From: Oceanispirochaeta sp.
GTDB lineage: Bacteria; Spirochaetota; Spirochaetia; DSM-2461
Direction: 5' to 3'
Assembly: GCA_963677615.2 (NCBI GenBank)
Contig: CAXXQW010000006.1
Span: forward strand, 33,520 to 97,519
Length of the DNA stretch: 64,000 nucleotides
Positions 1 through 19,834 of the stretch are shown here, in pieces (the stretch's first letter is position 1; every line of letters starts with the position of its first letter). A model generated the notes under the pieces. That model was not told the origin of the DNA, searched no databases, and saw only the letters and a program-made list of their open reading frames with translations. The position numbers and the translations under genes are program-made.

Positions 1-221
1 AGGTTCCTGTCAACAGTCGGTCCTATTCCAGCCGTCAGGATAATATTATGCTCTTCTGCACACCGTCTGATAGTTTCTAGTTGATCATCACTGTATTCCA
101 GTATCTGATGAGCAGCAATTTCCAGGATATCAAATCCAATCTCTGATACTTTTTTTATATAGTGGATATAATCTCCATCCCACTCCTGTTCCCAAAAAGC
201 GTAATATATTCCATGTTTCAT
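1..221 (-). CDS. dpe: D-psicose (D-allulose)/D-tagatose 3-epimerase family protein, 5' part only (runs off left edge; not in ORF track)
   Basis: Manual translation from ATG at 221 (SD GAGGA upstream): MKHGIYYAFWEQEWDGDYIHYIKKVSEIGFDILEIAAHQILEYSDDQLETIRRCAEEHNIILTAGIGPTVDRN. This closely matches the N-termini of characterised ketose 3-epimerases as recalled (MKHGIYY.YWE.EW...GFDI.E.AA...I.LT.G.GP). Confidence 0.88.
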   Translation of the reverse strand, partial: MKHGIYYAFWEQEWDGDYIHYIKKVSEIGFDILEIAAHQILEYSDDQLETIRRCAEEHNIILTAGIGPTVDRN

Positions 222-249
222 TTGATTTCCTCATTAAAGAAAGATTGAA

Positions 250-1950
250 TTATTTATCAATTTTTTCAGTAGTAATAACTGGTAAAATGACACGTGAAGG
301 GTAATCTTTTCCCATATAGAAGTTCTGTTTAGCTTTTTTCTTTGTTATCTGCTCCGACCAAACACCTGGAAGATTAGGATGGATTGAATATTGGGGAAAA
401 TCCGATGATTGTATATCAATTCTCAATTGAGAGCCTTTTTTGAATTGAAAAGCAATATCCCAGAGATCTATATTTACTTCAACAATCTCTCCCGGTTTAT
501 ATCCCACCCTTTTTTTGGAGTTGTTACGATAGCCCAGAGTTGTTATTCCGGACCTGACATTGTAGCTACTCCCATCCTTGAGAATGTTCATTATTTTTAC
601 TGAAAAGGATGTATCTTCAACATCAGTGCTGACATAAAGAAGAACATTTATCTTTCCCCATACCGTTATATCCTGATGCAAGGTACTGCTAATAAAACTG
701 ATGACATCTTCCCTGTAATCGGGTCCCGGCTGAAGAAGACTACCAATAGCCTCTCTTGTCTTTAACATGGATTCTGCCCCCCAACTGGGTACTGGGTCAT
801 CCGGATTATATTGAAAAGAAAATGTATGATTTTTTTCGAGAGATGTTATCATAGGAGTAAGCTCTTTTCGTTCCTTCTCCATATTAAAATACAATTCCAG
901 AATTTCCTGATTCTCTAAATTATAATCAGCCTGATCGATCCAATAATCCCCACCAATGACATAGGAAGAGACTCCTGTATCATGATTATCTTTTTTTACT
1001 TGAAGATCATAAAACCATTTAAAAGACCTGATCAGATCATTATTTTCGTAATTTTTCCCTATATGCCCCTGAATAGGGACATCAAACCAATGATCCCATG
1101 GACCAACAACAAGCTTGCTCTTCTTTCTGCATTCATCCGATAACGCATGGTAGGACAAGAGACCGGAACCCAGGTGATGATCATACCATCCTTCACTAAT
1201 GAGTAAGGGAATTTTCACTTTTTGGGGAATTGTTTTCAGAATCCCCCAAACTCCTTCATTCCAGTATTCATCATCCCCATCGGTAGAAGTAACCCATTTT
1301 TTATACCACTCCAGATGCTTTCCCCATAGGTTACCGCTGACGTCACAGTGAGGCTGATACTTACAGGTTTCAAGATAGTCGGCCTTTACATCATAACCGG
1401 CATTTTCCATAGCCCAAGCTGTTAAAACATCATGGCGGAAAAGTCCGTCTTTATAAGCAGAAATATGACGAAAAACACCATAATTGGACAGATACATAGT
1501 CTTCACTTTTTCCGGGAGAATATCTGCAATTATCCATCCCGTAAGAGCCATATAGGAAACTCCCATATAACCCACATTTTCCACCCAGGCCTGTGAGCAG
1601 ACCCAATCTATAGTATTTTTCCCGTCCCTTCTTTCATTGACATTAGGTTCCCATTCTCCTTCAGATCCTCCTGTTCCACGGCAGAACTGTGTTATAAATG
1701 CAAAACCTCTATGTGCATATTCCACAGCAATGGCCTTATACCAATCCTCCAGATCTTTATAGGGTGTTCTTACCAGAATTGCAGGATAACTTTCATCATC
1801 GCTAACAGGTCGGGAGATAAAAGTTCTGAGATTGACTCCATCACCCATGGTGAGCCTAATTTCTGAGGATTCTATGCTGTTGTGTGTTTCCGGGTATTCG
1901 CTGGATGAAAATTTATTGTGAATATCCTGTATTTTATCACTATCGCCCAT
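250..1950 (-). CDS. CocE/NonD family serine hydrolase (S15/X-Pro dipeptidyl-peptidase-like), copy 1
   Basis: RTPY, CRGTGGSEG, nucleophile GVSY, GWYDHH (Asp), GPWDH (His), C-terminal PepX_C-like jelly-roll (RIDIQSSDFP). No signal peptide. Confidence 0.9.
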   Translation of the reverse strand: MGDSDKIQDIHNKFSSSEYPETHNSIESSEIRLTMGDGVNLRTFISRPVSDDESYPAILVRTPYKDLEDWYKAIAVEYAHRGFAFITQFCRGTGGSEGEWEPNVNERRDGKNTIDWVCSQAWVENVGYMGVSYMALTGWIIADILPEKVKTMYLSNYGVFRHISAYKDGLFRHDVLTAWAMENAGYDVKADYLETCKYQPHCDVSGNLWGKHLEWYKKWVTSTDGDDEYWNEGVWGILKTIPQKVKIPLLISEGWYDHHLGSGLLSYHALSDECRKKSKLVVGPWDHWFDVPIQGHIGKNYENNDLIRSFKWFYDLQVKKDNHDTGVSSYVIGGDYWIDQADYNLENQEILELYFNMEKERKELTPMITSLEKNHTFSFQYNPDDPVPSWGAESMLKTREAIGSLLQPGPDYREDVISFISSTLHQDITVWGKINVLLYVSTDVEDTSFSVKIMNILKDGSSYNVRSGITTLGYRNNSKKRVGYKPGEIVEVNIDLWDIAFQFKKGSQLRIDIQSSDFPQYSIHPNLPGVWSEQITKKKAKQNFYMGKDYPSRVILPVITTEKIDK

Positions 1951-1997
1951 ATTTCTGAATTCTCCCTATAACTGTAGAAGCTTCAAATATTTAGCCT

Positions 1998-2669
1998 TCA
2001 AAAAATTTCAACCTGCCGGCAATCTTCGGCAATAACAATATTGGCTTTGGTATTTTCCAGAATAAAATCTTCTGTATAGGGTTTAAAGATTTCTTTGAGT
2101 ACAAATGCCCCATCGGATATTTCAAAATAACCGACATCTGTAACAAGCACATCAACCTCATTCTGAGCTGTCAGAGGCAAACGGCACTCCTTCAGCAGCT
2201 TGCAATTCCCATGTTTGTCAAAATGGACAGTTGCACCAATCACTTTCCGTGCGCCTACAGTAAGGTCCATCCCGCCCCCCATTCCCGGTACCATTTTTCC
2301 GGGGATTTTATAATTGGCCAGATTTCCCTGCTGATCCACTTCCAGCACTCCAAGAACAGTGTAATCCACATGACCACCGCGGATAATCCCGAAGGAAACA
2401 GCCGAATCAAAGTAACAGCCACCTGGTAAAAGAGTAACTGGCATTCCACCGGCATTAACAAGATAAGGATCTATACCGCTCTCATCAGGCTTAGGCCCCA
2501 GACCGATAAACCCATTTTCCGAATGAAAAATTATATCTATCCCTTCGGGGATGTAGTTACCAACTTCAGTGGGTAGTCCTATTCCCAGATTAACCACGTT
2601 ACCATTAGCAAAAATCTGAGCTATACGTTTTGCAATAATATCTTTCCGGGGAGTATATTCAATCATCAC
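1998..2669 (-). CDS. atoA: 3-oxoacid/acyl CoA-transferase subunit B (class I)
   Basis: VNLGIGLPT, catalytic SENG, GMGGGMDL motifs. Confidence 0.9.
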   Translation of the reverse strand: MMIEYTPRKDIIAKRIAQIFANGNVVNLGIGLPTEVGNYIPEGIDIIFHSENGFIGLGPKPDESGIDPYLVNAGGMPVTLLPGGCYFDSAVSFGIIRGGHVDYTVLGVLEVDQQGNLANYKIPGKMVPGMGGGMDLTVGARKVIGATVHFDKHGNCKLLKECRLPLTAQNEVDVLVTDVGYFEISDGAFVLKEIFKPYTEDFILENTKANIVIAEDCRQVEIF

Positions 2670-3355
2670 ACAACCTGCCTGTTCCTGGTTTCTACCAGAT
2701 AGTTAACAAAAATTGAGGGAGTCACTACTGAATCCGGATCCAGTTCTCCTATTTCAACAATTTCATCTGCCTGCACTATGACGGTATCACAAGCCATAGC
2801 CATAAGGGGATTGAAATTTCTTGCAGATCGAGCATAGACAAGATTTCCCGCCCGATCTGCTTTTTCAGCATGAATCAGTGCCACATGCCCGGGAAGGGCC
2901 AACTCAAGCAGATATTTTTTTCCGTCTGTCTCAATGATCTGCTTACCTTCCTCAACTTCGGTACCAACTCCTGTAGGAGTCAAAAAACCTCCGATTCCAT
3001 AACCTGCAGACCTGATTCGCTCGGCCAGTGTTCCCTGAGGGACAAGTTCGACTTCTGTTTCACCGGCAATCATTTGCCTTTGAATCTCTATATTCAAACC
3101 GATATGACTTGCAATTACTTTTACGAACTGGTGAGCCAATATATTTTCAGAGACACCATTTACTTTTCCCTTATCGGGAAGATACCATCCACAATCAGTA
3201 CTGATTAAAGTAAGATTATTGGTTCCCTGCTCTTTTAGAGCCTTAAGCAGTTCAGGAGGTGCACCACACCCCATAAAACCTCCGACCATTACAGTCTGAC
3301 CCGACTGAACGACTGTCAGAGCATCCTTACTAGACAGGATTTCTTTCTTAACCAT
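2666..3355 (-). CDS. atoD: CoA-transferase subunit A (class I)
   Basis: VGGF.GCG.P, PQGTLAERIR.GG.GIGGFLTPTGVGT, GNLVY...ARNFNP. Start trimmed to MVKKEIL (3355); overlaps subunit B by 4 nt. Confidence 0.9.
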   Translation of the reverse strand: MVKKEILSSKDALTVVQSGQTVMVGGFMGCGAPPELLKALKEQGTNNLTLISTDCGWYLPDKGKVNGVSENILAHQFVKVIASHIGLNIEIQRQMIAGETEVELVPQGTLAERIRSAGYGIGGFLTPTGVGTEVEEGKQIIETDGKKYLLELALPGHVALIHAEKADRAGNLVYARSARNFNPLMAMACDTVIVQADEIVEIGELDPDSVVTPSIFVNYLVETRNRQVV

Positions 3356-3368
3356 GAACAATTCTCCA

Positions 3369-4547
3369 TTACAATTCGATGCACATTGCGGCACCCATTC
3401 CTCCGCCGATACAGAGTGTAGCCAGCCCTTTTTTCAAACCTCTCCGTTTCATTTCATAAATCAATGTAACAAGGATTCGTGTCCCGCTTGCTCCGATCGG
3501 ATGACCGATTGCAATTGCTCCCCCATTGACATTAATTACCGATGTATCCCATCCCAGTTCTTTATTTACAGCAATAGCCTGAGCGGCAAAAGCTTCGTTT
3601 GATTCAATCAATTCCAGGTCTCCAATCGACCACCCGGCTTTTTTAAGGGCTTCCCTGGTTGCTCCTACAGGACCAATCCCCATGATTTCGGGAGGACAAC
3701 CAGCGTATCCATAGGATGCTATTCGCGCCAGAGGCTCGGAATTTCTCAAACGTAATTCATCTTGTGAAACCAGTAATGCAACTGCCGCAGAATCATTTAT
3801 TCCCGAAGAGTTGCCGGCAGTGACAGTTCCATCCTTCTTGAAAGCAGGACGCAGCCTGGAAAGGGATTCAACAGTAACCCCATGACGGATATACTCATCA
3901 TTCTGGAAGATGATGGGATCACCCTTATGCTGGGGAATAGAAACAGGGATAATTTCATCTTTGAATTTTCCGGTTTTTTGAGCTTCTTCCGCCTTATTCT
4001 GAGAACAGCAGGCAAACTGATCCTGTTCTTCTCGGCTTATACCGTATTTCTCAGCAAGATTCTCAGCAGTAATACCCATATGATAGTCGTTGAATTTGTC
4101 CCAGAGACCATCATAAATCATACTGTCTATAATCTCCCCATTTCCCATGCGGTATCCACTACGGGCTTTTGGCAGGATATAGGGAGCCATTGACATATTC
4201 TCTACTCCACCTGCTAGAACCATATTTGCATCACCGCATTTGATACTTTGAGCTGCAAGCATCAAGGCACGTAATCCTGAACCACAGACCATATCTATCG
4301 AAAGAGCGGTCTTCTCTTTTGGAATCCCCGCATTTACCGCTGCCTGTCGGGCAACATTCTGTCCCAATCCGGAACCCAGAACATTTCCCAGAATCAATTC
4401 ATCAATTCTTTCCGGTTCAATTGCATTTCGGGAAACCAGATCGGAAATAACAACTTCAGCCAAATCAGAAGGATGAATAGAAGAAAGGGTTCCTCCAAAG
4501 TTTCCTACAGCAGTCCTGGCACAATCCAATACATAAACATCCTTCAT
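3369..4547 (-). CDS. atoB: acetyl-CoA C-acetyltransferase (thiolase II)
   Basis: DMVCGSGL (active Cys), NEAFAAQ, GHPIGASG, CIGGGMG. Start trimmed to MKDVYV (4547, SD AGGAG). Confidence 0.95.
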   Translation of the reverse strand: MKDVYVLDCARTAVGNFGGTLSSIHPSDLAEVVISDLVSRNAIEPERIDELILGNVLGSGLGQNVARQAAVNAGIPKEKTALSIDMVCGSGLRALMLAAQSIKCGDANMVLAGGVENMSMAPYILPKARSGYRMGNGEIIDSMIYDGLWDKFNDYHMGITAENLAEKYGISREEQDQFACCSQNKAEEAQKTGKFKDEIIPVSIPQHKGDPIIFQNDEYIRHGVTVESLSRLRPAFKKDGTVTAGNSSGINDSAAVALLVSQDELRLRNSEPLARIASYGYAGCPPEIMGIGPVGATREALKKAGWSIGDLELIESNEAFAAQAIAVNKELGWDTSVINVNGGAIAIGHPIGASGTRILVTLIYEMKRRGLKKGLATLCIGGGMGAAMCIEL

Positions 4548-4569
4548 TACAAGATCTCCTTCACAAGTA

Positions 4570-5523
4570 TTATTCAAACAACGTACAAGATACGAAATGC
4601 CCTTCTTCTACTTCAATCATGGGGATATCACGATCCTTGCATTTATCGCTTACTTTCGGACAGCGGGCAGCAAACCGGCATCCCGGCTTTGGTTCGATAG
4701 GACTTGTGAGTTCTCCGCGCATAATATTTTTTGACAATTTCTTTCCCGTCAGACGAGGAGCCGGGATTGCATCGAGTAGACCGATAGTATACGGATGGAG
4801 TGGATTGCTGAAGAGCTTTTTCTTCTCGGTAAACTCTACACATTGCCCGAGATACATAACAGCAATATGGTGGCTTATATGCTTCACCACACTAAGATCA
4901 TGGGTTATGAACATGTAAGCTATTCCCTTTTCTTCCTGTAAGTCCATCAAAAGGTTTAAAATTTGTGCCTGTATTGATACATCAAGCGCAGAAACAGGCT
5001 CATCACAAACGACAAACTCAGGATTCAGGGCAAGAGCCCGGGCAATTCCGATTCTCTGCCGCCGACCGCCATCCAGCTCATGGGGATAACTGTGCAAGTA
5101 GCGATGAGCTATTCCGACAGTTTTCATCAATTGGTTCACCTTGTCGTTATATTCATCGCGGCTCTCATAGTTTTTGTAGATTTTCAAAGGCTCTCCGATC
5201 AACTCACCAACAGAATTTCTCGGATCCAGTGATGAAAAAGGATCCTGGAATATTAGTTGCATTTTAGGTCGAAGTTCATGCATCTCTTTTTTGTTGAAAT
5301 TCAGAATATTCCTGTTCTGAAAAAGAACTTCCCCATCAGTTACATCCAAAAGACGAAGTATGAGATTTCCCAGCGTGGTTTTTCCGCAACCCGATTCTCC
5401 CACGACACCAAGAGTCTTCCCCTTGGCAATATTAAAACTAACATTGTCTACGGCGTGGAGCATTCCTCTATGAGTTTTAAAGTATTTCTTAAGATTCTTG
5501 ACCTCTACCAAAGTATCATTCAT
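4570..5523 (-). CDS. oppF: oligopeptide/dipeptide ABC transporter ATP-binding protein (OppF/AppF-like)
   Basis: GESGCGKTT, FQDP, variant signature LDGGRRQRI, CDEPVSALD, C-terminal oligo_HPY domain (HPYT...CRFAARC). Confidence 0.92.
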   Translation of the reverse strand: MNDTLVEVKNLKKYFKTHRGMLHAVDNVSFNIAKGKTLGVVGESGCGKTTLGNLILRLLDVTDGEVLFQNRNILNFNKKEMHELRPKMQLIFQDPFSSLDPRNSVGELIGEPLKIYKNYESRDEYNDKVNQLMKTVGIAHRYLHSYPHELDGGRRQRIGIARALALNPEFVVCDEPVSALDVSIQAQILNLLMDLQEEKGIAYMFITHDLSVVKHISHHIAVMYLGQCVEFTEKKKLFSNPLHPYTIGLLDAIPAPRLTGKKLSKNIMRGELTSPIEPKPGCRFAARCPKVSDKCKDRDIPMIEVEEGHFVSCTLFE

Positions 5524-6512
5524 TGTGCTTCTCCATTGCCGATGTTTTTAAACAAGTGACATCTGATAAAGTGCCCCGGCTCAACTTCCTGCATAACCTG
5601 CGTTTGCCTGCAAACATCACTAACTTTCTTACACCTATCTGCAAACCGGCACCCTTTTATTTCCTCTGTTGGATCCGGCATCAAGCCTTCTATGGTATCC
5701 AGCCTATCAGTGTCTTCATCAAGTTTGGGTATGGCACCAAACAGTCCTTCCGTGTAGGGATGTCTGAATTCTCCTTCAAATATCGATTCAATCCTCCCGC
5801 TTTCAATAATCTCTCCGGAATACATTACAGCCACTTTCTCACAGGTTTGGGCAACAACTCCCAGATCATGTGTAATTAAAACCATAGCTGTGTTCAGTCT
5901 GACTTTGAGATCATTGATAAGAGAAAGCATCTGAGCCTGAATAGTTACATCCAGAGCAGTCGTCGGTTCATCCGCAAGAATCAATTTTGGCTCACATGCC
6001 AGGGCTATGGCAATAATGATTCTCTGCTTCATCCCTCCGGAAAACTGATGGGGAAACTCATTCTTCCGGTAGGCAGGAATACCAACCAGTTCCATCATCT
6101 CGTCAACAACTTTATTGAGCTCTTCTTTTGACAATTCCCTACGGTGAATAGCCAACACTTCAAGAATCTGGTTTCCAACAGACATAACTGGATTCAAACT
6201 GGTCATGGGATCCTGAAAAATCATGGAAACAACATCACCCTGCATCTTACGGATCTGCTCTGATGGGCAGTTAAGAACATCAATCCCATCAAGAGATAGG
6301 CTTCCGCCGGTGACATAACCAATATCCTGTGGCAACAGACGCATTATACTTAATGCTGTTGTTGTTTTCCCGGCACCAGTTTCGCCCACTAATCCAAGTG
6401 CTTCTCCATATCCCAGTGAAAGGCTCAAACCATTCACAGCGTATACATTGCCGTCCTCAACTCTGTATTCGACATGCAAATCTTTTATTTCAAGTAAGTT
6501 ATTAGTACTCAA
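5520..6512 (-). CDS. oppD: oligopeptide/dipeptide ABC transporter ATP-binding protein (OppD/DppD-like)
   Basis: GETGAGKTT, FSGGMKQR, ADEPTTALD, HPYT...CRFADRC. Confidence 0.92.
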   Translation of the reverse strand: MSTNNLLEIKDLHVEYRVEDGNVYAVNGLSLSLGYGEALGLVGETGAGKTTTALSIMRLLPQDIGYVTGGSLSLDGIDVLNCPSEQIRKMQGDVVSMIFQDPMTSLNPVMSVGNQILEVLAIHRRELSKEELNKVVDEMMELVGIPAYRKNEFPHQFSGGMKQRIIIAIALACEPKLILADEPTTALDVTIQAQMLSLINDLKVRLNTAMVLITHDLGVVAQTCEKVAVMYSGEIIESGRIESIFEGEFRHPYTEGLFGAIPKLDEDTDRLDTIEGLMPDPTEEIKGCRFADRCKKVSDVCRQTQVMQEVEPGHFIRCHLFKNIGNGEAQ

Positions 6513-7420
6513 CGTTTTTTCCTTTCAAACAGGCTGATTCTCTTTACAGTACCAAGAGAGCCGCGTAGTCGCGGATCCAATGCATCCCTTACCGCATCTC
6601 CAACGATATTGAAACACAAAACGATCAAAAAGATAAAAATACCCGGGGCTACGGCCAGTACCGGAATCATTCTCAGGAATGTATTCCCATCAGCGACCAT
6701 CCCCCCCCAAGAGGGAAGAGGTGGATTGATTCCCAATCCCAGAAAGCTCAGGTTTGCTTCCGCTAAAATTGCCGTTCCCAGATTCATGGTCATCAATACA
6801 ATATTAGGGGAAATACAGTTTGGTAGAATGTGCTTGAGGGTTGTACGGAACTTCGAGGAGCCACATATGGTGCTAGCTGTAATATAATCACTTCCCCGGA
6901 CTGTAAGGACCTGTCCTCTAGTTAGCCGGGCAAAACTTGGTGCCGCGCTTATTCCAACCGAAAGCATGACATTCGGAAGTCCCTTCCCAAGAATTCCTCC
7001 CAGAAATATAGCCAGAACAATCAAAGGAATGGACATCATGGCATCCATCAACCTCATTATGATTGTATCGACGATTCCACCTACAACACCTGCAGTAACT
7101 CCAAGAATCATGCCTATAGTACCTGCAATTAACACAGAAGCTAGACCGACGGAAAAAGAGATTCTCGTTCCATAGATGATTCGGGAAAATGTATCCCTAC
7201 CCAACGAATCAGTTCCGAAAATATGTTCCAGAGAACTAGTCTTCAAAGTATTATTCAGATCCTGTTTATAAGGATCATAGGGAGCAACAAAAGGGGCAAA
7301 AACAGCGGCAAATGCCAAAGCAAGTAGTATTATGAGGCATATAACAACCGCCTTTCTTGCCAATAGAACCCTGAAAAATCTTTTCATCTTCTGCGAAGCG
7401 GCCTTTTCATTATTTTTCAT
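6509..7420 (-). CDS. oppC: peptide ABC transporter permease (OppC/DppC-like)
   Basis: HIFGTDSLGRD, EAA-type loop, KHILPN, FLGLG, GDAVRDALDP. Confidence 0.92.
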   Translation of the reverse strand: MKNNEKAASQKMKRFFRVLLARKAVVICLIILLALAFAAVFAPFVAPYDPYKQDLNNTLKTSSLEHIFGTDSLGRDTFSRIIYGTRISFSVGLASVLIAGTIGMILGVTAGVVGGIVDTIIMRLMDAMMSIPLIVLAIFLGGILGKGLPNVMLSVGISAAPSFARLTRGQVLTVRGSDYITASTICGSSKFRTTLKHILPNCISPNIVLMTMNLGTAILAEANLSFLGLGINPPLPSWGGMVADGNTFLRMIPVLAVAPGIFIFLIVLCFNIVGDAVRDALDPRLRGSLGTVKRISLFERKKR

Positions 7421-7471
7421 GGCGATACTCTCTCCCTATTCTCTCATTTTGAACTATACACATCATATATC

Positions 7472-8434
7472 TCACTTTCTGTCTCTTATACGCGGATCAA
7501 CAACACCATAAAGTAGATCTACTATTAAATTGCAAATTATTATGAATACTGAAATAACAAAAACAACATTCTGAACAACCATAAAATCTTTACTTCTAAT
7601 CGCTGTTATCATTGTAGAGCCAAGACCGGGTATAACAAAAAGTGACTCAATAATAATGGTCGTTCCCACCATAATTCCCAGCTGAAATCCCATAACAGTA
7701 ATAATGGGAATCAGTGCATTCCTCAGCTGGTGTTTAAGAATTATATTTTTTCTGTCTAGCCCCTTTGCTCTGGCGGTTCTAACATAATCCTGACGAATAA
7801 CTTCCAGCATTGCAGACCTGGTCTGTCGGGTAAAAACAGCCGTAGGGGTTAAGGAACAGATAATCACCGGCATAATAAGCGGTTTTATCGACTTACCAAA
7901 ATCAACCCATGGAGGGACATATCCCTGTACAGGCAGCATGCGTAACTTAATGGAAAAGATAAGAATCAAAAGAATACCAAGCCAGAATATCGGCATGGCC
8001 ATTCCAAAATTAGCCAGGGTTGATACTACAGAATCAAGAGGCTTCCCCCTATGCAGAGCGGCTATGATTCCAAAAGTGGAACCTATAATTACGGCAAGAA
8101 AAAAAGCCGGTAAAACCACTGAAAGAGTAATCGCCAGTTTTTCAAATATAAACTGGGATATATCTTTCTGCATTAATACAGAGCGGCCCATCTGACCATG
8201 AAATAGGTTGCTTATCCATTTACCATATTGAACAAGTATAGGCTGATCATACCCAAATAGTTTCGTATAGTGGTCAATTTGTTCCATCGTTGCAGAAGGC
8301 CCCAGAAAGATACGAATGGGATCTCCTGGAACAGCCTGCATTACCATGAACACAATAAAAGTTACGACGACTAATACTATGAGTGAATGAGCAACCCTTG
8401 ATAAAATCATTTGTAATAATTTGTTCTTCATCAT
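7472..8434 (-). CDS. oppB: peptide ABC transporter permease (OppB/DppB-like)
   Basis: PGDP, QDYVRTARAKGL, RNALIP, DLLYGVVDPRI. Start trimmed to MMKNKLL. Confidence 0.92.
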   Translation of the reverse strand: MMKNKLLQMILSRVAHSLIVLVVVTFIVFMVMQAVPGDPIRIFLGPSATMEQIDHYTKLFGYDQPILVQYGKWISNLFHGQMGRSVLMQKDISQFIFEKLAITLSVVLPAFFLAVIIGSTFGIIAALHRGKPLDSVVSTLANFGMAMPIFWLGILLILIFSIKLRMLPVQGYVPPWVDFGKSIKPLIMPVIICSLTPTAVFTRQTRSAMLEVIRQDYVRTARAKGLDRKNIILKHQLRNALIPIITVMGFQLGIMVGTTIIIESLFVIPGLGSTMITAIRSKDFMVVQNVVFVISVFIIICNLIVDLLYGVVDPRIRDRK

Positions 8435-8570
8435 ATATCTCCAATTTCTCATCGGCAATGAACTAGTAAACCGTCACTAGCCGGATCTGATAAAAACAAA
8501 CTCCGGTTTCATTCACATTTACGATCACTTGAATTTCCATTCTCCGAGTAGTAAGTAAAAAATGAATACT

Positions 8571-8596
8571 GGGGACCAGATTTTTATCTGATCCCC
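8571..8596 (-). terminator. stem-loop between oppA and oppB (mRNA-stabilising hairpin or partial terminator)
   Basis: Inverted repeat ggggaccagat / atctgatcccc with 1 mismatch, just after the oppA stop. Confidence 0.5.
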
Positions 8597-8613
8597 GATT
8601 TCTCTATATATTG

Positions 8614-10176
8614 TTATTCGATCCAGGCGTTTGCAGGATCCCAGGTATAAACATGGTCCCAGTTGATTCTTGTATCATGGAGCGTTTTCACTTTGAATAC
8701 AAAAGGCTTTTGAATATAAAGAGGCTGACCAAACAACGCATATTTATCATAGGCCATAACCTGCATCTTCCACTCAAGTGCTACTTTTTCTTCATCCGTA
8801 GGGGCAACTCGTATCTGATGCAGAAGGTCCAGCATTTCCTGAGGATGCTGAAAACCTCCAGCATAGAAGGGAGCATCCGGATCTAGGTGTCTACCCATGA
8901 ACAAACCGAGGTCGGGAGAGATGGAGTGATAGTGACCCATTATTCCTTCCCAGGTACTGGAAAACATATTAAAGATTGTGGGGTCGTCCACCAGGTTTAC
9001 AGTAGTCCGGATACCTGCTTCAGTCAGCATGTTTGCAGCTGCGGTAAACATATCCTTAGTTTGGGGAGGTGTATTGATAACTGTATCAAAACCATTGGGA
9101 TATCCAGCTTCAGCAAGTAATTTTTTAGCTTTTTCAGGATTATAAGGATACCCTTTAACATTGGGATTATATGTTTTTGCACCTTTGGCTGCCCACTGAT
9201 TTGTAGAATCAAGAAGACCGTATCCGAAAGTTCTTACCAGAGCTTCTGCATCTATTGCATAACACATGGCCTGTCGAACCTTAACATCTGCAAAAGGTGA
9301 GTCTGGATCGGCACTATTAGGAATAAGCCCTGTTCCTACAAGACCGCGACCGGATTTATTCTCTTCCATGTCGTAGATGCCTGCATTCATCAGCTGCTGA
9401 CCAGCAATTATATCCTCTATCAGAATGGCATCATATTCCCCATTTTGAAACGCCAGGGCGATGGTCTGGTTTTCCTGAATAATGTCAAAATTGATCGCAT
9501 CCAGATAGGGCTTGCCTTCCTGCCAGTAATTTTCGTTCTTAACATAACGTACTTTTACGTTGTTTACAAATTCAGAGACAATGAAAGGACCTGTTCCCGC
9601 AGAAGACGACCGTAGTTTATCTACATCTTCAAGAGCTTTGGGTGAAGCGTAGAATACATAGAATCCCATACCTTCAAGAGTCGATGAATTCCAGTCTTTA
9701 AGTATCAGTTTTACCGTATAATCATCAATGATATTGATACTGGCAATATTTTGGGTCTCGTTTCTTCCTACACTCTGGTACTCCTCAATGTTCCTTTTAA
9801 CTGCTGCGGCGTTGAAGGGTTCACCATCGGAGAATTCTACTCCCTGACGAAGTGTCCATGTGATACTAGGTTCTGACGGGTCAGTAGTCCAGGCAGTCGC
9901 CAGACTCGGAATAACATTCCCCTTTTCATCATATTTGATAAGTGATTCATATGCTGAATAAACATAGAGCAAAGGTCCATTTGAGGTAACTTCCGGCATA
10001 TAACCGGAATTAGGCAGCTGATTGAACAAACCAAAACGTAATACGCCTCCGTATTTACCGTCTTTCTTGACAGTTGTTTGTTCTGTTTCCTGGCCGCCAT
10101 TAGCTAATACTGGACTGATAAATACAGCCATGATCGCCAAGGCAATGATAGTTCTAAATAGTTTTCTTGAACTCAT
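8614..10176 (-). CDS. oppA: family 5 ABC substrate-binding protein (OppA/DppA-like)
   Basis: Signal peptide ending LA-NGGQE, YESLIKYD...PSLAT.W...LRQGVEFSDG.PFNA.AVK, AGTGPF, KVRQAM.YAID, YNPEKAKKLLAEAGYP. Confidence 0.9.
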   Translation of the reverse strand: MSSRKLFRTIIALAIMAVFISPVLANGGQETEQTTVKKDGKYGGVLRFGLFNQLPNSGYMPEVTSNGPLLYVYSAYESLIKYDEKGNVIPSLATAWTTDPSEPSITWTLRQGVEFSDGEPFNAAAVKRNIEEYQSVGRNETQNIASINIIDDYTVKLILKDWNSSTLEGMGFYVFYASPKALEDVDKLRSSSAGTGPFIVSEFVNNVKVRYVKNENYWQEGKPYLDAINFDIIQENQTIALAFQNGEYDAILIEDIIAGQQLMNAGIYDMEENKSGRGLVGTGLIPNSADPDSPFADVKVRQAMCYAIDAEALVRTFGYGLLDSTNQWAAKGAKTYNPNVKGYPYNPEKAKKLLAEAGYPNGFDTVINTPPQTKDMFTAAANMLTEAGIRTTVNLVDDPTIFNMFSSTWEGIMGHYHSISPDLGLFMGRHLDPDAPFYAGGFQHPQEMLDLLHQIRVAPTDEEKVALEWKMQVMAYDKYALFGQPLYIQKPFVFKVKTLHDTRINWDHVYTWDPANAWIE

Positions 10177-10245
10177 AATTTTCTCCTTCTTGTTTATGTT
10201 CTACAAATGCCTGAACGGGCCCTGAACCGGCATTATGTAAATCGC

Positions 10246-12054
10246 TTAAATTAATGCGGGAAGCAAGATACAACTAGGATAATCCCCTCCGTACATAAGG
10301 GTATTAAAGGTTATGCAATCTTCTTCCTGTAAAGACCATATTTCATCATGATTCCTGTGAATATTGTACATGGGAAAATTCGAGGAGCTGATATCAACTC
10401 GGATTGTACTTCCAGCAGAGACTTTCCAGGCAACCGGCCACATCTCTATTTTTAATTGAGTGACATCATGAGGGGTGTACTCTCTTGCCATTCCATTTCC
10501 AGCTCTAAATCTGATAGTTGAAATGCCATCGCATATGTTAAAATACTGTCCTTGAATCTCTTCCATTATCTTTACGGCAATACATGTATCGGGTGCATCA
10601 GAACTGACATTAAGTAGCACCTTGATATTCCCGACAAGATCAATATCCTCTTCAAAAGGCTTCGATATAAATGTTACAACGTCATCTCTGAACTCCGGCT
10701 CCGGCTGCAGCACACATCCATGTTTCGCTCCTTTGAAATCAGGATTTATCCATGCTAAAAGAGCGCTTCCTCCAATAGTATGAACCGGGTTGGAAGAGTC
10801 ATACACAAATTCCCTGGTATATGTATTCTCAGGAGCTACCTCTCTTAAAATGCCAATTCTATTATTTACCAGATTCTCTGAATCTAAATAAAGACACTTT
10901 TGTTCAGCATCAACCGGCCACTTATCATGGGCTATCCATTTTCCGCTGTTTACCAGATAGGTTTCCACATTTCCGACTTCATGAGGATAGTTTTCACCCT
11001 TCAACTGAAAATCAAACCATTCAATAGCTTCCCTGACACAGAATGTACTCAAAGCAATTTTCCCTGCAAAACCCTTATCTCCAGGAGTTTTGAATGAATG
11101 ATCCCAGGGACCGATAAGAAAGCGGCTTTTATTCCTGATGGATTGGGGAAGATTGTTATATGCCTCACACATTCCATCAAGATGATGGTCAAACCAGCCG
11201 GCAATCATGTGAACTGGAATACTTATTTTCGAAGGGACTTTCTGGAGATCATACCAAAGACCGGAACTCCACAAATCCGAATCGACTGATGGATTGGTTA
11301 CCCAGTCCCGGTACCAGGATATTTCAGTATTGAACAGATTATAATCCATCTCTATATGGGGTTTAACTTTTAATGCTTCCTGGTAAAGATCTCCCGGATT
11401 CTTTTCTGTTGTAATCCCTGAATTTTCAACAGCCCACATGGTATAGATTTCATGACGGAACATACCACCCATATACATTTGGCGATACCGCTCTGTTCCC
11501 GCAACAGTAAAAAACAGGGTTTTTACTTCCACTGGTACAGCATCAGCCATCAACCACTGATTGATTGAAAGATAGGATGGACCGAACATTGCAATTCTAT
11601 TCTGGCTCCAGGGCTGTGCCTTTATCCATTCGATAGCAAGAAGTCCATCGTTACGCTCATTGACAAAGGGAATCCACTCTCCTTTTGAAGATCCAGTACC
11701 CCGACAATCCTGTACAACGACAACATACCCGTACATAGCCATTAATGAAGCAGCACAGAACAATTGTATTCCCGTTGACAAAGCAGAATAGGGAGATCGA
11801 ATAAGAATAACCGGGTATTCCTTTTCGAAGTTGGGCGAAATAACCTCGGTAAAAAGGGTTACATCTTCATCCACGTCTACCATAAAGGATCGTGAAACAA
11901 CACTTCGGTTTGTAACTTCCTGGTTTTCAAATATCATGTCATTTATTACAGAGCGGTTAGTTTCATCAATATTATCAGGAATGAGTTCGGTATAATTGAT
12001 TATTCTCTCCGCATCGTATTCACAATCCATACTGATTTTCACCTTTCTTTTCAA
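10246..12054 (-). CDS. CocE/NonD family serine hydrolase, copy 2
   Basis: RSPY, CRGTGSSKG, GPSY, GWFDHH, GPWDH, RVDISSSNFP. No signal peptide. Confidence 0.9.
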   Translation of the reverse strand: MKRKVKISMDCEYDAERIINYTELIPDNIDETNRSVINDMIFENQEVTNRSVVSRSFMVDVDEDVTLFTEVISPNFEKEYPVILIRSPYSALSTGIQLFCAASLMAMYGYVVVVQDCRGTGSSKGEWIPFVNERNDGLLAIEWIKAQPWSQNRIAMFGPSYLSINQWLMADAVPVEVKTLFFTVAGTERYRQMYMGGMFRHEIYTMWAVENSGITTEKNPGDLYQEALKVKPHIEMDYNLFNTEISWYRDWVTNPSVDSDLWSSGLWYDLQKVPSKISIPVHMIAGWFDHHLDGMCEAYNNLPQSIRNKSRFLIGPWDHSFKTPGDKGFAGKIALSTFCVREAIEWFDFQLKGENYPHEVGNVETYLVNSGKWIAHDKWPVDAEQKCLYLDSENLVNNRIGILREVAPENTYTREFVYDSSNPVHTIGGSALLAWINPDFKGAKHGCVLQPEPEFRDDVVTFISKPFEEDIDLVGNIKVLLNVSSDAPDTCIAVKIMEEIQGQYFNICDGISTIRFRAGNGMAREYTPHDVTQLKIEMWPVAWKVSAGSTIRVDISSSNFPMYNIHRNHDEIWSLQEEDCITFNTLMYGGDYPSCILLPALI

Positions 12055-12368
12055 TCAGTTTCAATTTCCATATCAAGAATTGCTGAACTTAAGGTTTTCC
12101 CATGCATATCAATCGATAAAGAACGAGTAACTCCCCCTCCCAGAGCATTGTCCATCACAAAGTTCAAAGCGCCAAGCTGAGGTAGTTCATATCGGACAAC
12201 CTCACCAAAAACTATTCCGGAAAACCAATCCCTCACCCTTTCCGCTGTAACATATTTTTCCAGGATTCCGTAATCTTTCATATCATATGCAATGACTGAA
12301 ATATTAGAGATATTACCTTTGTCTCCTGCTCTCGTATGAGCAACTTCGCGTAACTTTACCATATTCAT
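12051..12368 (-). CDS. small AtuA C-terminal-domain-like protein
   Basis: VAHTRAGDKGN.SNISVIA...V.RYELP.LGALNFV...LGGG...SL.ID.HGK.LS. Overlaps both neighbours by 4 nt. Confidence 0.8.
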   Translation of the reverse strand: MNMVKLREVAHTRAGDKGNISNISVIAYDMKDYGILEKYVTAERVRDWFSGIVFGEVVRYELPQLGALNFVMDNALGGGVTRSLSIDMHGKTLSSAILDMEIETD

Positions 12369-13735
12369 GTTCTCTCAAAATGTACTTTAATCTCTGCGTC
12401 AGATTCAGGAATAAAAATCGAGACAACAGAGATTTGTTCTTTGGTTGACGAGCGAAAACCACCGCCTGCGGCAGGTCCATTGAGATATAAAGTTTCTACT
12501 TCTCTGGCAACTGCTTCGGCAGAATCCTTTTCAGCTGTATTGGCTATTATTCGAACACGGATTTCAGAAAACCGCTTTTCAGCGCCCAGCAACTTATCAC
12601 TTAATTCATCACCATATAGAGAATTAAGACCTATATAATCAAATTTAAGTCCTTCAATTGGAAGTTTCAGACGTTTAAAACGTTTTTCTAGTATTTCTAC
12701 TGCAAGCCTGGCCCGATCAAGAGCACCGGGCCCGCCGTAACTGAATTCGCTCTCACTAACATAGCAGTCCCGGTATCCGATACTGACTTTCAACTTTCCT
12801 GTTGAAGGATGGCCAGATCCATTGGAGACTTTTACCCGGTTTTTACCAACCTCTTCAACGACCACCTGTGAAAAATCAGCTATTCCATCTGGGGTAATAT
12901 ATGCATGTGGATCATGGAGTTCATAGAGGATCTGTTCTGTACATGTGGCACGGTTTACAACCCCGCCTGCTTCATCAAGCTTACTAATCTCAATGGTCCC
13001 ATCGGGAGAGATTTCCCCAATCGGAAATCCAACATTCCATAAATCTGGAACATCTTTGTACCCAGGATCCGCGAAATACCCCCCTGTGACCTGTGCTCCG
13101 CATTCAAGGAGGTGCCCTGCAAGGATTCCCTTCCCAATCAATTCAAAATCATCAGTCTGCCAGCCGAACTCATGAATAATTGGAGCAAGTACCAATGCAG
13201 GATCTGAAACCCTTCCGCAGATAACAATATCAGCTCCGCTGTTGAGTGCTTTTACAATTCCTGAAGATCCAATGTAAGCATTTGCAGAAACAATTTCTTT
13301 ATTAAGTTCCCGCAGGGTTCCCCCTGTCTCCAGAACCTCGTTATCCAAATATTTATCAATTTTATCAGAAATGGAATCACCTGTAACATAGGCTATTTTC
13401 ATTCCATTAAATCCCAACTTCCTTGCCAGTTCAGATACTACATGAGCAGCGGATTTTGGATTAGCAGCACCCATATTGGTAATAACTTTAATTCCTGAAA
13501 TATGGCAAAGGGGGAGAACCTGCTCCATTCGGGCTACCAGCAGTTCATTATACCCCTTTTCAGGATCCTTCAATTTATCCTTCTGTGCCAGGGCTATTGT
13601 TCTTTCTGCCAGACATTCAAAGATAATGTAGTCAAGATTTCCTTTTTCCATAAGCTGAATAGCAGGATCTATCCGGTCACCGCCATATCCAGCTCCGGTA
13701 CCAATCCTCAGGCTTGAAGACTTTTTTTCTATCAT
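12365..13735 (-). CDS. acyclic terpene utilisation AtuA family protein (DUF1446)
   Basis: RIGTGAGYGGDR, ECLAERT, NAYIG, GRVSDPAL, GHLLECGAQVTGG, EQILYELHDP..YITPD, LNGPAAGGG. Confidence 0.9.
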   Translation of the reverse strand: MIEKKSSSLRIGTGAGYGGDRIDPAIQLMEKGNLDYIIFECLAERTIALAQKDKLKDPEKGYNELLVARMEQVLPLCHISGIKVITNMGAANPKSAAHVVSELARKLGFNGMKIAYVTGDSISDKIDKYLDNEVLETGGTLRELNKEIVSANAYIGSSGIVKALNSGADIVICGRVSDPALVLAPIIHEFGWQTDDFELIGKGILAGHLLECGAQVTGGYFADPGYKDVPDLWNVGFPIGEISPDGTIEISKLDEAGGVVNRATCTEQILYELHDPHAYITPDGIADFSQVVVEEVGKNRVKVSNGSGHPSTGKLKVSIGYRDCYVSESEFSYGGPGALDRARLAVEILEKRFKRLKLPIEGLKFDYIGLNSLYGDELSDKLLGAEKRFSEIRVRIIANTAEKDSAEAVAREVETLYLNGPAAGGGFRSSTKEQISVVSIFIPESDAEIKVHFERT

Positions 13736-13745
13736 ACCAAAACTT

Positions 13746-13762
13746 ATGCAATGTTCGTGCCA
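13746..13762 (-). promoter_or_regulatory. sigma54 (-24/-12) promoter of the atuA...dpe operon
   Basis: Minus strand reads TGGCAC-GAACA-TTGCAT, matching consensus TGGCAC-N5-TTGC(A/T). An adjacent gene encodes a GAFTGA activator. Confidence 0.9.
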
Positions 13763-13888
13763 GCTATCAAATTTATATGTTTTTTTTCATTAGATGTAAA
13801 ATTACCCTTTTAAAAAAGAGATCAAACATCCAGTTTTTTTAGTAATCGAGAAAATACGGTACGTTCAGGAATAAGATATTTTACAAAT

Positions 13889-13937
13889 TTCTAATTTTCT
13901 GGAAAAATCAAGCTTCTAAATTTCTAAAATTTTAGAA
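13889..13937. promoter_or_regulatory. candidate upstream activator sequences (bEBP binding sites)
   Basis: Perfect palindrome TTCTAAAATTTTAGAA (13922-13937) and imperfect copy TTCTAATTTTCTGGAA (13889-13904), 33 bp apart and about 130-175 bp upstream of the -24 element. Confidence 0.6.
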
Positions 13938-14078
13938 TTTCATTATTGTAAGTCACCATCATAGGAAACAACAGGTATTCTCATTTTAAAATTTTGAATA
14001 CAATTATAGCTCCTGGTATAATTATGTACCAATTTCTGAGAATTGATCTAAAGTCTTTATTAAGAGTTCTGAAAAAGA

Positions 14079-15428
14079 TTAAGGATTTGCTTTTTTTAGT
14101 TTATTGTAGAGTGATGCCAAAGAAATCCCCAGGGCTTTTGCAACTTCTTTCTTTCCTTCAACAGAATTTCCATATTTTTCAAGGGCTTGTGCAATCAACT
14201 TATGTTCTGCCTGATCTACTATCTTTGAAAGTGGCTGCAAACCTGTATCATGTTTTTCCTGAATAATATCTTTAATAGATTTGGGAAGATGGTTTAATTC
14301 TATTATTTCATCTTCACACATCATATAGCTGTATTCAATAGCATTCTTCAATTCTCTGATATTTCCAGGCCAAACATATTTCCTGAATATGTTCAGCACT
14401 TCTTCAGATATAACCTTGTCTGTTTTTTCAACACAATTCAATTCAGAAAGAAAATAATTCACGAGATGTTCGATATCTCCGGTACGCTCTCTGAGGGGAT
14501 TCAGATTAATTCCGAATACACAAAGACGGTAGTATAGATCTGCTCTGAATTCTTTTTTTGATATAAGCTCTGGAATATCCTTATTAGTTGCAGCAATGAC
14601 ACGAACATCAATTGGAATTTCCCTGGCACCACCGACAGGACGAATAGCCTTTTCCTGAAGGGCCCTGAGAAGTTTAGCCTGGATTTTGCAATCCATCTCA
14701 GTGACTTCATCCAAAAAAACGGTTCCCCCATTAGCTTCTTTAAATAAGCCCGTTTTACCGCCTTTTTTAGCGCCCGTAAATGCCCCATCCTGATATCCAA
14801 ACAACTCACTTTCCAATAAAGAGTTATCCAGGGTGGCACAGTTTACCGGAATAAAAGGACTATCCCTTCTGCTGCTTTCATTATGTATGGAATGGGCATA
14901 AAGCTCTTTACCAGTTCCACTTTCTCCGAAAATGAGAACATTTATATCTTTGTGGGCAATTTTCTTTGCAAGATTAATATTATCAAGGGATTTTTGATCT
15001 GTATAAATGATATCATCAAAAGTATACCTGGCACCTTTCAATTTTCTGACCTTGGCTTCAAGGTCTTTTATTATCATTCCGGATCTTTTAAGTTTTTTTG
15101 TAAGCTTCCCTATATCACTGATATCATTTAATAATGAAATACCACCTGTTATCTTCTCATTCTCAATTATAGGTACCATATTCACAATATACTCACGATC
15201 TCCAACTTTACGATGGACACCTAATAGTTGCTCACCTGTTTGCAGAACAGTCTGTAGTTTACTTCCGGGTCTTACTGACAGAGGTTTTCCAACAATATCA
15301 TCAAATGCAACAGAAGTGATTTTAGAATAGGATTTATTCACATAACGAACAATCGAATTGGAATCTACAATGAGGATTCCATCGTATAATGAGTCAAGAA
15401 TAACTTTTACTAAACTAGTAATTTCCAT
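14079..15428 (-). CDS. sigma54-dependent enhancer-binding activator (PAS-AAA+-Fis HTH)
   Basis: N-terminal PAS (ILDSLYDGILIVD), GESGTGKE, GAFTGA, FLDEV, FRADLYYRL, WPGNIREL, C-terminal ALGISLASLYNKL. Confidence 0.95.
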   Translation of the reverse strand: MEITSLVKVILDSLYDGILIVDSNSIVRYVNKSYSKITSVAFDDIVGKPLSVRPGSKLQTVLQTGEQLLGVHRKVGDREYIVNMVPIIENEKITGGISLLNDISDIGKLTKKLKRSGMIIKDLEAKVRKLKGARYTFDDIIYTDQKSLDNINLAKKIAHKDINVLIFGESGTGKELYAHSIHNESSRRDSPFIPVNCATLDNSLLESELFGYQDGAFTGAKKGGKTGLFKEANGGTVFLDEVTEMDCKIQAKLLRALQEKAIRPVGGAREIPIDVRVIAATNKDIPELISKKEFRADLYYRLCVFGINLNPLRERTGDIEHLVNYFLSELNCVEKTDKVISEEVLNIFRKYVWPGNIRELKNAIEYSYMMCEDEIIELNHLPKSIKDIIQEKHDTGLQPLSKIVDQAEHKLIAQALEKYGNSVEGKKEVAKALGISLASLYNKLKKANP

Positions 15429-15776
15429 ATCAATTTGTCTTTTCTTTCATATTAAAAACGCCTAATCAGGATAAATCTTGTGATTTTCATTTGTCAATGT
15501 TGATTATCACTTGAAAAGACTTTCTACATTCTGCTTTTGAACTTCATCTCTGCGCAAGAAGTATTGGCACATTTTACATCTTTGATAACCCGTTGTAAAT
15601 GATTAATACATGATTAAGATATTGTACTACAAAGTTTGGTTTTACCCATATCCATTATTCTCTTCTTGAATGGTCAATATCTACCATCTACACTCAGGCA
15701 ATTTAAATTAGATCCCCCTTGATTGGGCAATTTCTCTTTCAGGAGACCGGGTTTGGGAACTCAGATGGGCAATCAT

Positions 15777-15815: not shown

Positions 15816-15865
15816 AACAACACAAATCTATTCTAAAAAGGTATTGGTCTATCTGTTACCGGAAA

Positions 15866-19823: not shown

Positions 19824-19834
19824 AATTTCCTTCC

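Follow-up and report, generated by a model that had tools for sequence, protein, structure and literature searches.

A conserved sigma-54-associated operon of Oceanispirochaeta sp. with a predicted CmlAB-like lyase and a proposed role in the breakdown of an ester-conjugated beta-hydroxy acid

For the AtuA protein of Pseudomonas, the release of acetate from a 3-hydroxy-3-alkylglutaryl thioester has been proposed, a chemistry of the same class as the one considered here. The AtuA/DUF1446 family is very large (at least 8000 candidates at E <= 1e-30) and its only assigned activity, citramalate lyase, has so far come from one PDB entry and one preprint using the enzyme. In the PDB, 9ERQ/9EVF is described as an AtuA family protein, citramalate lyase subunit A (cmlA), with the title of 9EVF being "Citramalate lyase - ADP - pyruvate complex", and the preprint, from 2026, uses the citramalate lyase cmlAB of Raoultella planticola. 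A literature search found no paper connecting citramalate lyase with either AtuA or acyclic terpene utilization. In E. coli O157:H7, ECs_0760 (456 amino acids) and ECs_0759 (105 amino acids) adjoin the genes for methylaspartase, glutamate mutase and the mesaconase FumD (PMC4682846); ECs_0760 matches the CmlA of the PDB with 970 bits, and the adjacent DUF4387 gene, ECs_0759, is most likely CmlB. Both carry wrong names in RefSeq (E. coli O157:H7 Sakai, NC_002695.2, L164 26934-28618), namely "3-methylaspartate ammonia-lyase" for ECs_0760 and "acyl-CoA synthetase" for ECs_0759. Here, we analyzed a 64-kb window of contig CAXXQW010000006.1 from Oceanispirochaeta sp. (hereafter the window), in which positions 1-15428 hold 14 genes, all on the minus strand, 13 of them forming a putative operon after the activator gene. 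The operon is conserved, undescribed and built from known families, among them a two-gene AtuA (AtuA and AtuA-C, together AtuAB) that would work as a CmlAB-like lyase. We propose, with a probability of roughly 0.45, that this operon, under sigma-54 and an enhancer-binding protein (EBP), serves the uptake and breakdown of a beta-hydroxy acid that an ester bond joins to a carrier of the sugar or glycoside type.

The case for a single pathway comes from the gene neighborhoods of related loci. Conserved linkage, which the initial annotation had left to a search of other genomes, was found in at least six lineages, where AtuA, AtuA-C, a CocE hydrolase and an ATP-binding cassette (ABC) importer stand together under five types of regulators (sigma-54 EBP, LacI, GntR, IclR and LysR) and with three types of importers, often accompanied by CoA-transferase A/B and thiolase genes. 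The conserved core consists of AtuAB, CocE and an importer, with or without CoA-transferase and thiolase. In the three closest relatives (L001, L002 and L003, AtuA identity of 68-79%), the gene order is EBP, AtuA, AtuA-C, CocE, a family-5 substrate-binding protein (SBP), OppBCDF, an SDR protein and D-psicose 3-epimerase (DPE) for L001; EBP, AtuA, AtuA-C, SBP, OppBCDF, thiolase, CoA-transferase A/B and CocE for L002; and AtuA, AtuA-C, CocE, SBP and OppBCDF for L003. Farther away, a metagenome-assembled genome (MAG) of the Bacillaceae (L169) has an IclR gene next to SBP, OppBC, OppDF, AtuA, AtuA-C, CoA-transferase A/B and two CocE genes. The cultured Bacillus sp. FJAT-49711 (L171, assembly GCA_018343715.1) has almost the parts list of the window but a sugar-type importer, in the order esterase, AtuA, CUT1 sugar ABC importer, carboxylesterase, AtuA-C, thiolase, CoA-transferase A/B, two CocE genes, Gfo/Idh/MocA, a TIM barrel protein and a glycoside hydrolase of family 3 (GH3). 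In a biogas-reactor locus (L165), LacI stands next to a CUT1 ABC importer, an esterase, a metallo-beta-lactamase (MBL) hydrolase, AtuA, AtuA-C and CocE. An SBP-anchored scan of metagenomes gave 80 loci with 45-56% identity, many of them from the human gut; a CocE gene follows OppF in 35 of the 37 loci with enough room, and 16 of the 17 loci with full flanks have, within 10 kb, a second AtuA subfamily (34-36% identity) with its own AtuA-C. The control of these loci is by LacI or GntR. One human-gut organism of 56-59% G+C is represented by dozens of contigs (L105-L163), in which genes for a transporter, a ROK kinase and a glycoside hydrolase of family 1 (GH1) come after SBP, OppBCDF and CocE; in L118 (1338-17902), for example, there is also, about 7 kb upstream and beside a sugar-sensing two-component system, a divergent pair of AtuA and AtuA-C.

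A scan anchored on AtuA covered 80 species-representative genomes among the matches listed (48-59% identity, the closest genomes lying outside this set). Among these matches, AtuA-C is found beside AtuA in 80 of 80 genomes, and the commonest neighbor of AtuA is a CitMHS carrier (33 of the 80 loci), together with LysR or a sigma-54 EBP. These contexts indicate a minimal unit of regulator, acid carrier and AtuAB. In the clade of the window, the ABC importer and CocE occupy the place of the CitMHS carrier, and this replacement is our main reason for proposing that the acid arrives conjugated and is freed in the cytoplasm. Other deacylases linked to AtuAB are Amidase, a PF00756 esterase, a carboxylesterase, an MBL hydrolase, YdjC, a ceramidase-like protein and M20, and the linked sugar functions comprise phosphotransferase systems (PTS), GH3, GH1, ROK, FGGY kinase, Gfo/Idh/MocA and LacI. 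The acyl-processing part is constant and the sugar tail varies, as expected if the substrates share an acyl group. It is very likely that the genes form one pathway, and we hold the chances to be even that the cargo is a sugar-linked acyl conjugate. The pathway logic of the initial annotation, i.e., import, cytoplasmic hydrolysis and routing of the acyl part to AtuA, CoA-transferase and thiolase, fits these varied contexts, the sugar part being handled elsewhere; dpe, which it had included in the pathway, belongs to a lineage-variable tail and not to the conserved core.

The reading of AtuAB as a lyase is based on structure prediction. The AlphaFold model of AtuA (pLDDT 89.6) has a single real match in the PDB, 9evf_A, over the full length (TM 0.75, E 4e-24), and for the model of AtuA-C (pLDDT 88) 9evf_B alone matches significantly (TM 0.66, E 3.6e-4). 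Sequence and profile matches between AtuA and CmlA are weak but significant, the CmlA of E. coli O157 itself scoring 68 bits against PF07287, and AtuA-C stands beside AtuA in every locus examined closely. Since both subunits match the fold of CmlAB, AtuAB is best read as a C-C lyase; that it is an enzyme of CmlAB-like working that releases a keto acid is, in our judgment, somewhat more probable than not. The window pair is a distant two-subunit homologue of CmlAB and would work like it, though probably not as a citramalate lyase. The view that AtuA is without an established activity, taken in the initial annotation, is outdated given that the AtuA-family protein of 9ERQ/9EVF is the citramalate lyase CmlAB. 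In several loci, genes for a DUF2201 metallopeptidase/VWA-like protein and a MoxR-type AAA+ protein follow AtuA-C (L085 18720-19516, L101 13852-16440 and L167 4945-8408). Pairs of this kind often mature or activate metalloenzymes, and their presence may mean that AtuAB needs activation. The Atu pathway of terpene degradation was also considered for the operon and rejected, with none of AtuB-H (geranyl-CoA carboxylase AtuC/AtuF, AtuD dehydrogenase, AtuE hydratase) being found among the 13 operon genes.

As for the acid, CoA-transferase A/B genes, usually with a thiolase gene, directly follow AtuAB in Snodgrassella, Entomohabitans, Rhizobium, Fusobacterium, Clostridium intestinale, two Bacillaceae and the window, and in C. 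intestinale Bcd-EtfBA-Hbd adjoin the locus. In the window, CoA-transferase subunit A scores 229 bits with pcaI_scoA (over the cutoff) and 263 bits with the AtoD model, subunit B has the SENG catalytic glutamate motif at residue 50, and the thiolase has acetyl-CoA C-acetyltransferase as its best NCBIfam model (577 bits), with the catalytic Cys and His motifs present. Given an AtoD-like 3-oxoacid CoA-transferase and an acetoacetyl-CoA-type thiolase, the lyase product would most simply be acetoacetate, and by analogy with the cleavage of citramalate to pyruvate and acetate, the substrate would be 3-hydroxy-3-methylglutarate (HMG), split into acetoacetate and acetate. All Snodgrassella strains deplete HMG in the gut of the bee and, in vitro, turn it into acetate, the first steps being "not annotated in the genome" (PMC11343714). 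Their locus has LysR next to CitMHS, AtuA, AtuA-C, CoA-transferase A/B and thiolase, with an AtuA 50% identical to that of the window. This physiology gives independent, circumstantial support for HMG, which we name as the acid only tentatively. A literature search on a CoA-independent HMG lyase found nothing.

Both hydrolases keep the catalytic Ser/Asp/His (motifs GPSYL, WFDHH and GPWDH in CocE2; GVSYM, WYDHH and GPWDH in CocE1), with a mutual identity of only 35%. CocE2 has the cocaine esterase of Rhodococcus as its best PDB match (162 bits, full length) and orthologues in L001 and L003 (62% identity) and in the Bacillaceae pairs (42-46%), while CocE1 is of the type found after OppF in the metagenome loci (35/37). 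The importer shows the Opp architecture of a family-5 SBP, two permeases and two ATPases; in the window the evidence consists of the SBP family, the open reading frames (ORFs) and the Walker A motifs, and the domain assignment of the permeases and ATPases, oligo_HPY included, comes from their orthologues in L001-L003 (78-91% identity). The SBP is closest, among solved structures, to 5U4O, GsiB, NikA, AgaA and AccA (best, 136 bits). The initial annotation had called the importer peptide-type, which holds for the family, but in relatives its position is interchangeable with CUT1 sugar ABC, PTS and CitMHS systems, which suggests a non-peptide ligand. A plain peptide unit of the Opp-PepX kind was rejected on the grounds that the AtuAB/CocE/CoA-transferase set recurs with CUT1, LacI, GH3/GH1 and sugar kinases.

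Regulation by sigma-54 is indicated by the promoter TGGCACGAACATTGCA, the single exact -24/-12 match in 64 kb (pattern TGGCAC-N5-TTGCA, 0.03 expected by chance), which is located within the 343 nt that separate atuA from the EBP gene. The initial annotation had placed this consensus promoter one base off, at 13746-13762, and had described a PAS-GAFTGA activator gene directly upstream, the domains and motif of which (GAFTGA at residue 215) were found as claimed. Equivalent sites lie 5' of the first gene of the unit in 11 loci (L001-L003, L008, L009, L012-L015, L018 and L019); L001-L003 are close relatives and the other eight are more distant, EBP-linked loci. The motif TTCYA-N6-TAGAA occurs twice in the 64 kb, both copies about 130-190 bp upstream, and these paired palindromes, the expected binding sites of the EBP by prediction, are kept in four loci, i.e., the window and L001-L003. 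EBP orthologues occupy the same position in L001 and L002, and the best NCBIfam match of the EBP is PrdR-like, under the cutoff of that model. In the window and L001-L003, the atuA ATG lies 11-14 nt past the -12 element (11 nt in the window) and no alternative start codon is present; therefore, the atuA mRNA should be leaderless or nearly so, which, if the prediction holds, would be unusual for a sigma-54 promoter. The more distant loci have normal leaders with Shine-Dalgarno sequences.

Put together, the system could operate as follows. Once the inducer is sensed, the PAS activator would bind the two upstream palindromes and open the -24/-12 promoter, with the transcript starting at or next to the atuA ATG. 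The family-5 SBP and OppBCDF would import the intact conjugate, and the cytoplasmic CocE2 and CocE1 would free the acid. AtuA/AtuA-C would cleave the C-C bond beside the tertiary alcohol to give acetate and a keto acid; in the specific proposal, HMG would yield acetoacetate and acetate. The Ato-type CoA-transferase would form acetoacetyl-CoA, from which the thiolase would give two acetyl-CoA, for a net yield of one acetyl-CoA and thus one ATP via acetate kinase in a fermenter. The D-psicose 3-epimerase would convert the released ketose to fructose or a related usable sugar.

Several points weigh against this proposal. On the side of the lyase, the identity between the AtuA of the window and CmlA is only 17-22%. 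The small subunits belong to different families (PF23544 for AtuA-C, PF14330 or DUF4387 for ECs_0759) and share no sequence similarity (hhalign probability of 1%), and AtuA-C found no match in the PDB by sequence and profile search, so that AtuA-C is linked to CmlB by fold comparison alone. The CmlAB crystal, furthermore, contains ADP. The HMG proposal draws on gene context and one physiological paper, and the CitMHS carrier beside AtuAB in Snodgrassella could equally carry citrate. On the side of the cargo, the importer belongs to a type known for peptides and opines, the CocE/NonD family has peptidases among its members, and Amidase and M20 genes adjoin AtuAB in other lineages; an amide conjugate instead of an ester is possible. 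The epimerase gene is linked to the CocE/importer system in only three lineages (the window, L001 and L103) and is truncated in the window. Finally, the presence of all thirteen genes on one transcript is a prediction from layout and promoter.

The alternative that survives best, although we consider it unlikely, is that Opp imports a peptide-like or N-acylated amino compound, that the CocE proteins are amidases or dipeptidyl-peptidases, and that AtuAB, CoA-transferase and thiolase degrade an acyl or amino-acid-derived acid, with no sugar involved. The nearest relatives of the SBP include GsiB, DppA and Opp proteins, the CocE proteins have Peptidase_S15 and PepX_C domains, and Amidase (10 loci among the matches listed) and M20 peptidase adjoin AtuAB elsewhere. 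The below-cutoff PrdR-like match of the EBP would also fit, as PrdR-like regulators often control amino-acid catabolism in Firmicutes. However, the AtuAB, CocE and CoA-transferase set occurs with CUT1, LacI, GH3/GH1, sugar kinases, PTS/YdjC and DPE, and among solved structures CocE2 comes closest to an esterase, cocaine esterase (162 bits), as opposed to 38 bits for alpha-amino-acid ester hydrolases. In addition, the catalytic Asp is followed by D-H-H in CocE1 and CocE2, where amino-ester hydrolases hold the alpha-amino group with an acidic D-x-E-D cluster, a comparison made without alignment.

It is improbable, and more so than the amide version, that the operon is a mosaic in which peptide uptake and peptidases, acetoacetate use and rare-sugar epimerization merely share a promoter, AtuAB acting on a free acid that is imported separately. 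The tails do vary, with L003 ending after OppF, L001 being without thiolase and CoA-transferase and L002 without CocE2, and the G+C content of the operon (41%, against 48% for its neighbors) suggests recent assembly or transfer. Nevertheless, at least six lineages share the core, under five types of regulators and with three types of importers, which is hard to explain without a shared substrate, and no separate free-acid carrier is present in or beside the operon, a place that CitMHS fills in the simple loci.

In the ester-conjugate proposal, the weakest link is dpe, which would be a peripheral, lineage-specific handler of the ketose moiety. Only 73 residues lie in the window, 72 of which are covered by the NCBIfam model PsicseEpim, and over this visible part the protein is 71% identical to the full-length gene product of L001. 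The epimerases of L001 and L103 score 454 and 436 bits, respectively, against an equivalog cutoff of 300, and the one from L001 matches the A. tumefaciens DPE (2HK0) with 440 bits. In L103, the order is CocE, DPE, FGGY kinase, LacI and SBP. Elsewhere, the position of dpe is taken by Gfo/IolE-like and GH3, ROK and GH1, or YdjC and PTS genes, and in Bacillus by an unrelated TIM-barrel/dehydrogenase pair. The literature was searched for a physiological role of psicose epimerase, with no useful result. The epimerase also bears on the catabolism of Amadori compounds or glycated amino acids or peptides, which the initial annotation had offered as an alternative, with a ketosamine as the substrate of the enzyme, as in the case of FrlC. 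The folds of DPE and FrlC are of one family, and the SBP relatives include the opine binders AgaA (96 bits) and AccA; however, the L001 orthologue scores 454 bits with the D-psicose 3-epimerase model and 53 bits with that of fructoselysine 3-epimerase (FrlC), no FrlB-type deglycase, FrlD-type kinase or amadoriase was found in the window locus or any related locus, and AtuAB, CoA-transferase and thiolase would be left without a role, all of which makes this alternative very improbable. Least probable of all is that AtuAB shares the substrate of CmlAB and acts as an (S)-citramalate lyase, since CmlA and CmlB, albeit the only structural matches, are distant in sequence and small-subunit family, the window locus is without the mesaconase, methylaspartase and glutamate mutase genes seen in E. 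coli O157, and the 3-oxoacid CoA-transferase and thiolase, which are found after this subfamily again and again, would not be required for pyruvate and acetate as products.

The features of the region are collected in Table 1. Every family named in the initial annotation was confirmed by Pfam and NCBIfam profile searches, and its 13 co-directional genes from atuA to dpe were all found in place. It had also noted mostly small or overlapping gaps, which measure -26 to +69 nt (a 4-nt overlap for atuA and the AtuA-C gene), except for the 155 nt between the SBP and OppB genes. This longer gap contains a hairpin, possibly an attenuator or mRNA stabilizer. Rfam gave no riboswitch and no leader RNA within the operon, and scans for internal sigma-70 promoters and terminators remained at or below chance level. 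A Shine-Dalgarno sequence (GAGGAAA) precedes dpe, 28 nt after the cocE1 stop codon, leaving no space for a promoter between the two genes; dpe itself is cut by the window edge, so the 3' end of the operon lies outside the window. Look-ups of window proteins by exact sequence gave no match that would lead past this edge. The G+C content of the operon is 41.1%, against 48.3% in the rest of the window (37-45% within 1-15865, i.e., the operon and upstream spacer, and 46-50% within 15866-64000). This contrast suggests horizontal acquisition of the operon; the gap is narrower in L001 (48.7% vs 51.8%).

Table 1. Genes and predicted sites in the operon region, with positions in the window unless a relative is named
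Feature	Position	Strand	Basis
Sigma-54 enhancer-binding activator (EBP)	14079..15428	-	PAS + AAA+ (Sigma54_activat 222 bits) + HTH_8
Upstream activator site 1, palindrome TTCTAAAATTTTAGAA	13922..13937	.	Predicted; kept in window and L001-L003
Upstream activator site 2, TTCCAGAAAATTAGAA	13889..13904	.	Predicted; 33 bp centre-to-centre from site 1
Sigma-54 -24/-12 promoter TGGCACGAACATTGCA	13747..13762	-	Sole exact match in window
Promoter/start regions	window 13733-13762; L001 9972-10005; L002 2694-2723; L003 1043-1075		
AtuA, large subunit, CmlAB-type lyase (predicted), 456 aa	12365..13735	-	PF07287 519 bits (cutoff 22.8)
AtuA-C, small ferredoxin-like subunit, 105 aa	12051..12368	-	PF23544 131 bits
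CocE2, cytoplasmic CocE/NonD serine hydrolase	10246..12054	-	TIGR00976 272 bits
Family-5 (cluster C) substrate-binding protein (SBP_bac_5)	8614..10176	-	PF00496 230 bits
GC-rich hairpin 3' of the binding-protein gene	8571..8596	-	Sequence
ABC permease, OppB-type	7472..8458	-	ORF; 80-87% identity to same-position BPD_transp_1 gene, L001-L003
ABC permease, OppC-type	6509..7420	-	ORF; 84-88% identity to OppC_N/BPD_transp_1 genes, L001-L003
ABC ATPase, OppD-type	5520..6512	-	Walker A GETGAGKT; 78-86% identity to ABC_tran/oligo_HPY genes, L001-L003
ABC ATPase, OppF-type	4570..5523	-	Walker A GESGCGKT; 81-91% identity to relatives
Acetoacetyl-CoA thiolase (thiolase II)	3369..4577	-	Thiolase_N 338 bits, Thiolase_C 172 bits
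Class I CoA-transferase subunit A (AtoD/ScoA-like)	2666..3394	-	CoA_trans 198 bits
Class I CoA-transferase subunit B (AtoA/ScoB-like)	1998..2669	-	pcaJ_scoB 279 bits, over cutoff
CocE1, second cytoplasmic CocE/NonD serine hydrolase	250..1950	-	TIGR00976 270 bits
dpe (D-psicose/D-allulose 3-epimerase), 5' part, first 73 codons	1..221 (73 codons at 3-221)	-	PsicseEpim 101 bits

The rest of the window gives some hints on the host. Directly upstream of the operon and in the same orientation (15866-21211), an 819-aa ORF resembles a fused 2-oxoacid dehydrogenase E1 alpha-beta and is accompanied by apparent dihydrolipoamide dehydrogenase and acyltransferase genes, as in a complex of the acetoin/pyruvate dehydrogenase type, judging by translation only. 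At 21968-23332, a 454-aa ORF gives a weak match (42 bits) to the N-terminal domain of lactate racemase (Lar_N). A hexuronate set (mannitol-dehydrogenase-family reductase, altronate/galactarate dehydratase and UxaC) and the DctM subunit of a TRAP transporter are encoded at 27318-28628 and 34058-38457, and AraC, dCache histidine kinase and GGDEF regulators are also present; the host looks like a saccharolytic, pectin-using bacterium. Two divergent cobalamin riboswitches, at 56684-56885 (-) and 56976-57092 (+), lie about 90 nt apart, each presumably controlling a B12-related transport or biosynthesis unit. The signal peptide of the SBP, which ends in ...VLANGGQ and is without a lipobox cysteine, points to a location in the periplasm and thus to a diderm host, and the nearest named homologues of AtuA-C include MAGs of Treponemataceae and Rectinemataceae; together they hint, as no more than a guess, at a spirochaete.

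The operon and its relatives point to a second class of substrates for AtuA/DUF1446 proteins, together with a pathway of acylated-sugar uptake and de-esterification, and suggest how gut and plant-degrading bacteria might strip and burn the acyl decorations of glycosides; a related module is common in human-gut metagenomes. The further-reaching claim that AtuA/AtuA-C would be a CoA-independent HMG lyase, and the operon the first described bacterial route for HMG-esterified sugars or glycosides, e.g., plant HMG-glycosides, appears unlikely to us at this stage. If true, Snodgrassella, a symbiont of bees, would owe the unannotated first steps of its HMG use to the same enzyme, and D-psicose 3-epimerase, known mainly as an industrial enzyme, would gain a physiological, natural catabolic setting.

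Among the described systems, CmlAB (PDB 9ERQ/9EVF; Raoultella planticola; E. coli O157:H7 ECs_0760/ECs_0759) resembles the window pair in having a 456-aa large and a 105-aa small subunit encoded with a 4-nt overlap and in being the unique fold match for both subunits, and the same acetate-releasing C-C cleavage is presumed. It differs by an identity of 17-22%, by a small subunit of DUF4387 instead of PF23544, and by its context, which is glutamate fermentation via mesaconate, whereas conjugate import and acetoacetate genes in the window go with another predicted substrate. The atuABCDEFGH cluster of Pseudomonas holds the founding AtuA protein, but AtuA is split into two genes in the window, and the window host is probably an anaerobic saccharolytic bacterium, unlike that of the atu cluster. 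Snodgrassella-type loci have the same AtuA subfamily (about 50% identity) followed by the same CoA-transferase and thiolase, with a CitMHS carrier instead of the ABC importer, no CocE and a LysR regulator, which fits the uptake of a free acid. The atoSC-atoDAEB system of E. coli has a class I CoA-transferase A/B and a thiolase, leading from acetoacetate to acetyl-CoA, and its sigma-54 promoter is driven by an enhancer-binding protein, as predicted for the window operon. However, it has the AtoE carrier and the AtoS kinase, neither of which is in the window operon (for AtoE, by ORF list and Pfam), its activator has a receiver domain instead of a PAS domain, and acetoacetate is imported, whereas here it would be made within the cell by AtuAB. 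The cocaine esterase of Rhodococcus shares with CocE2 the 162-bit full-length match and the catalytic Ser/Asp/His motifs, though the relation is distant and the window has two paralogues. Finally, cluster C importers with non-peptide cargo (AgaA, AccA and NikA) have the same five-component architecture and are among the nearest solved binding proteins, although the identity of the window SBP to any characterized one is low.

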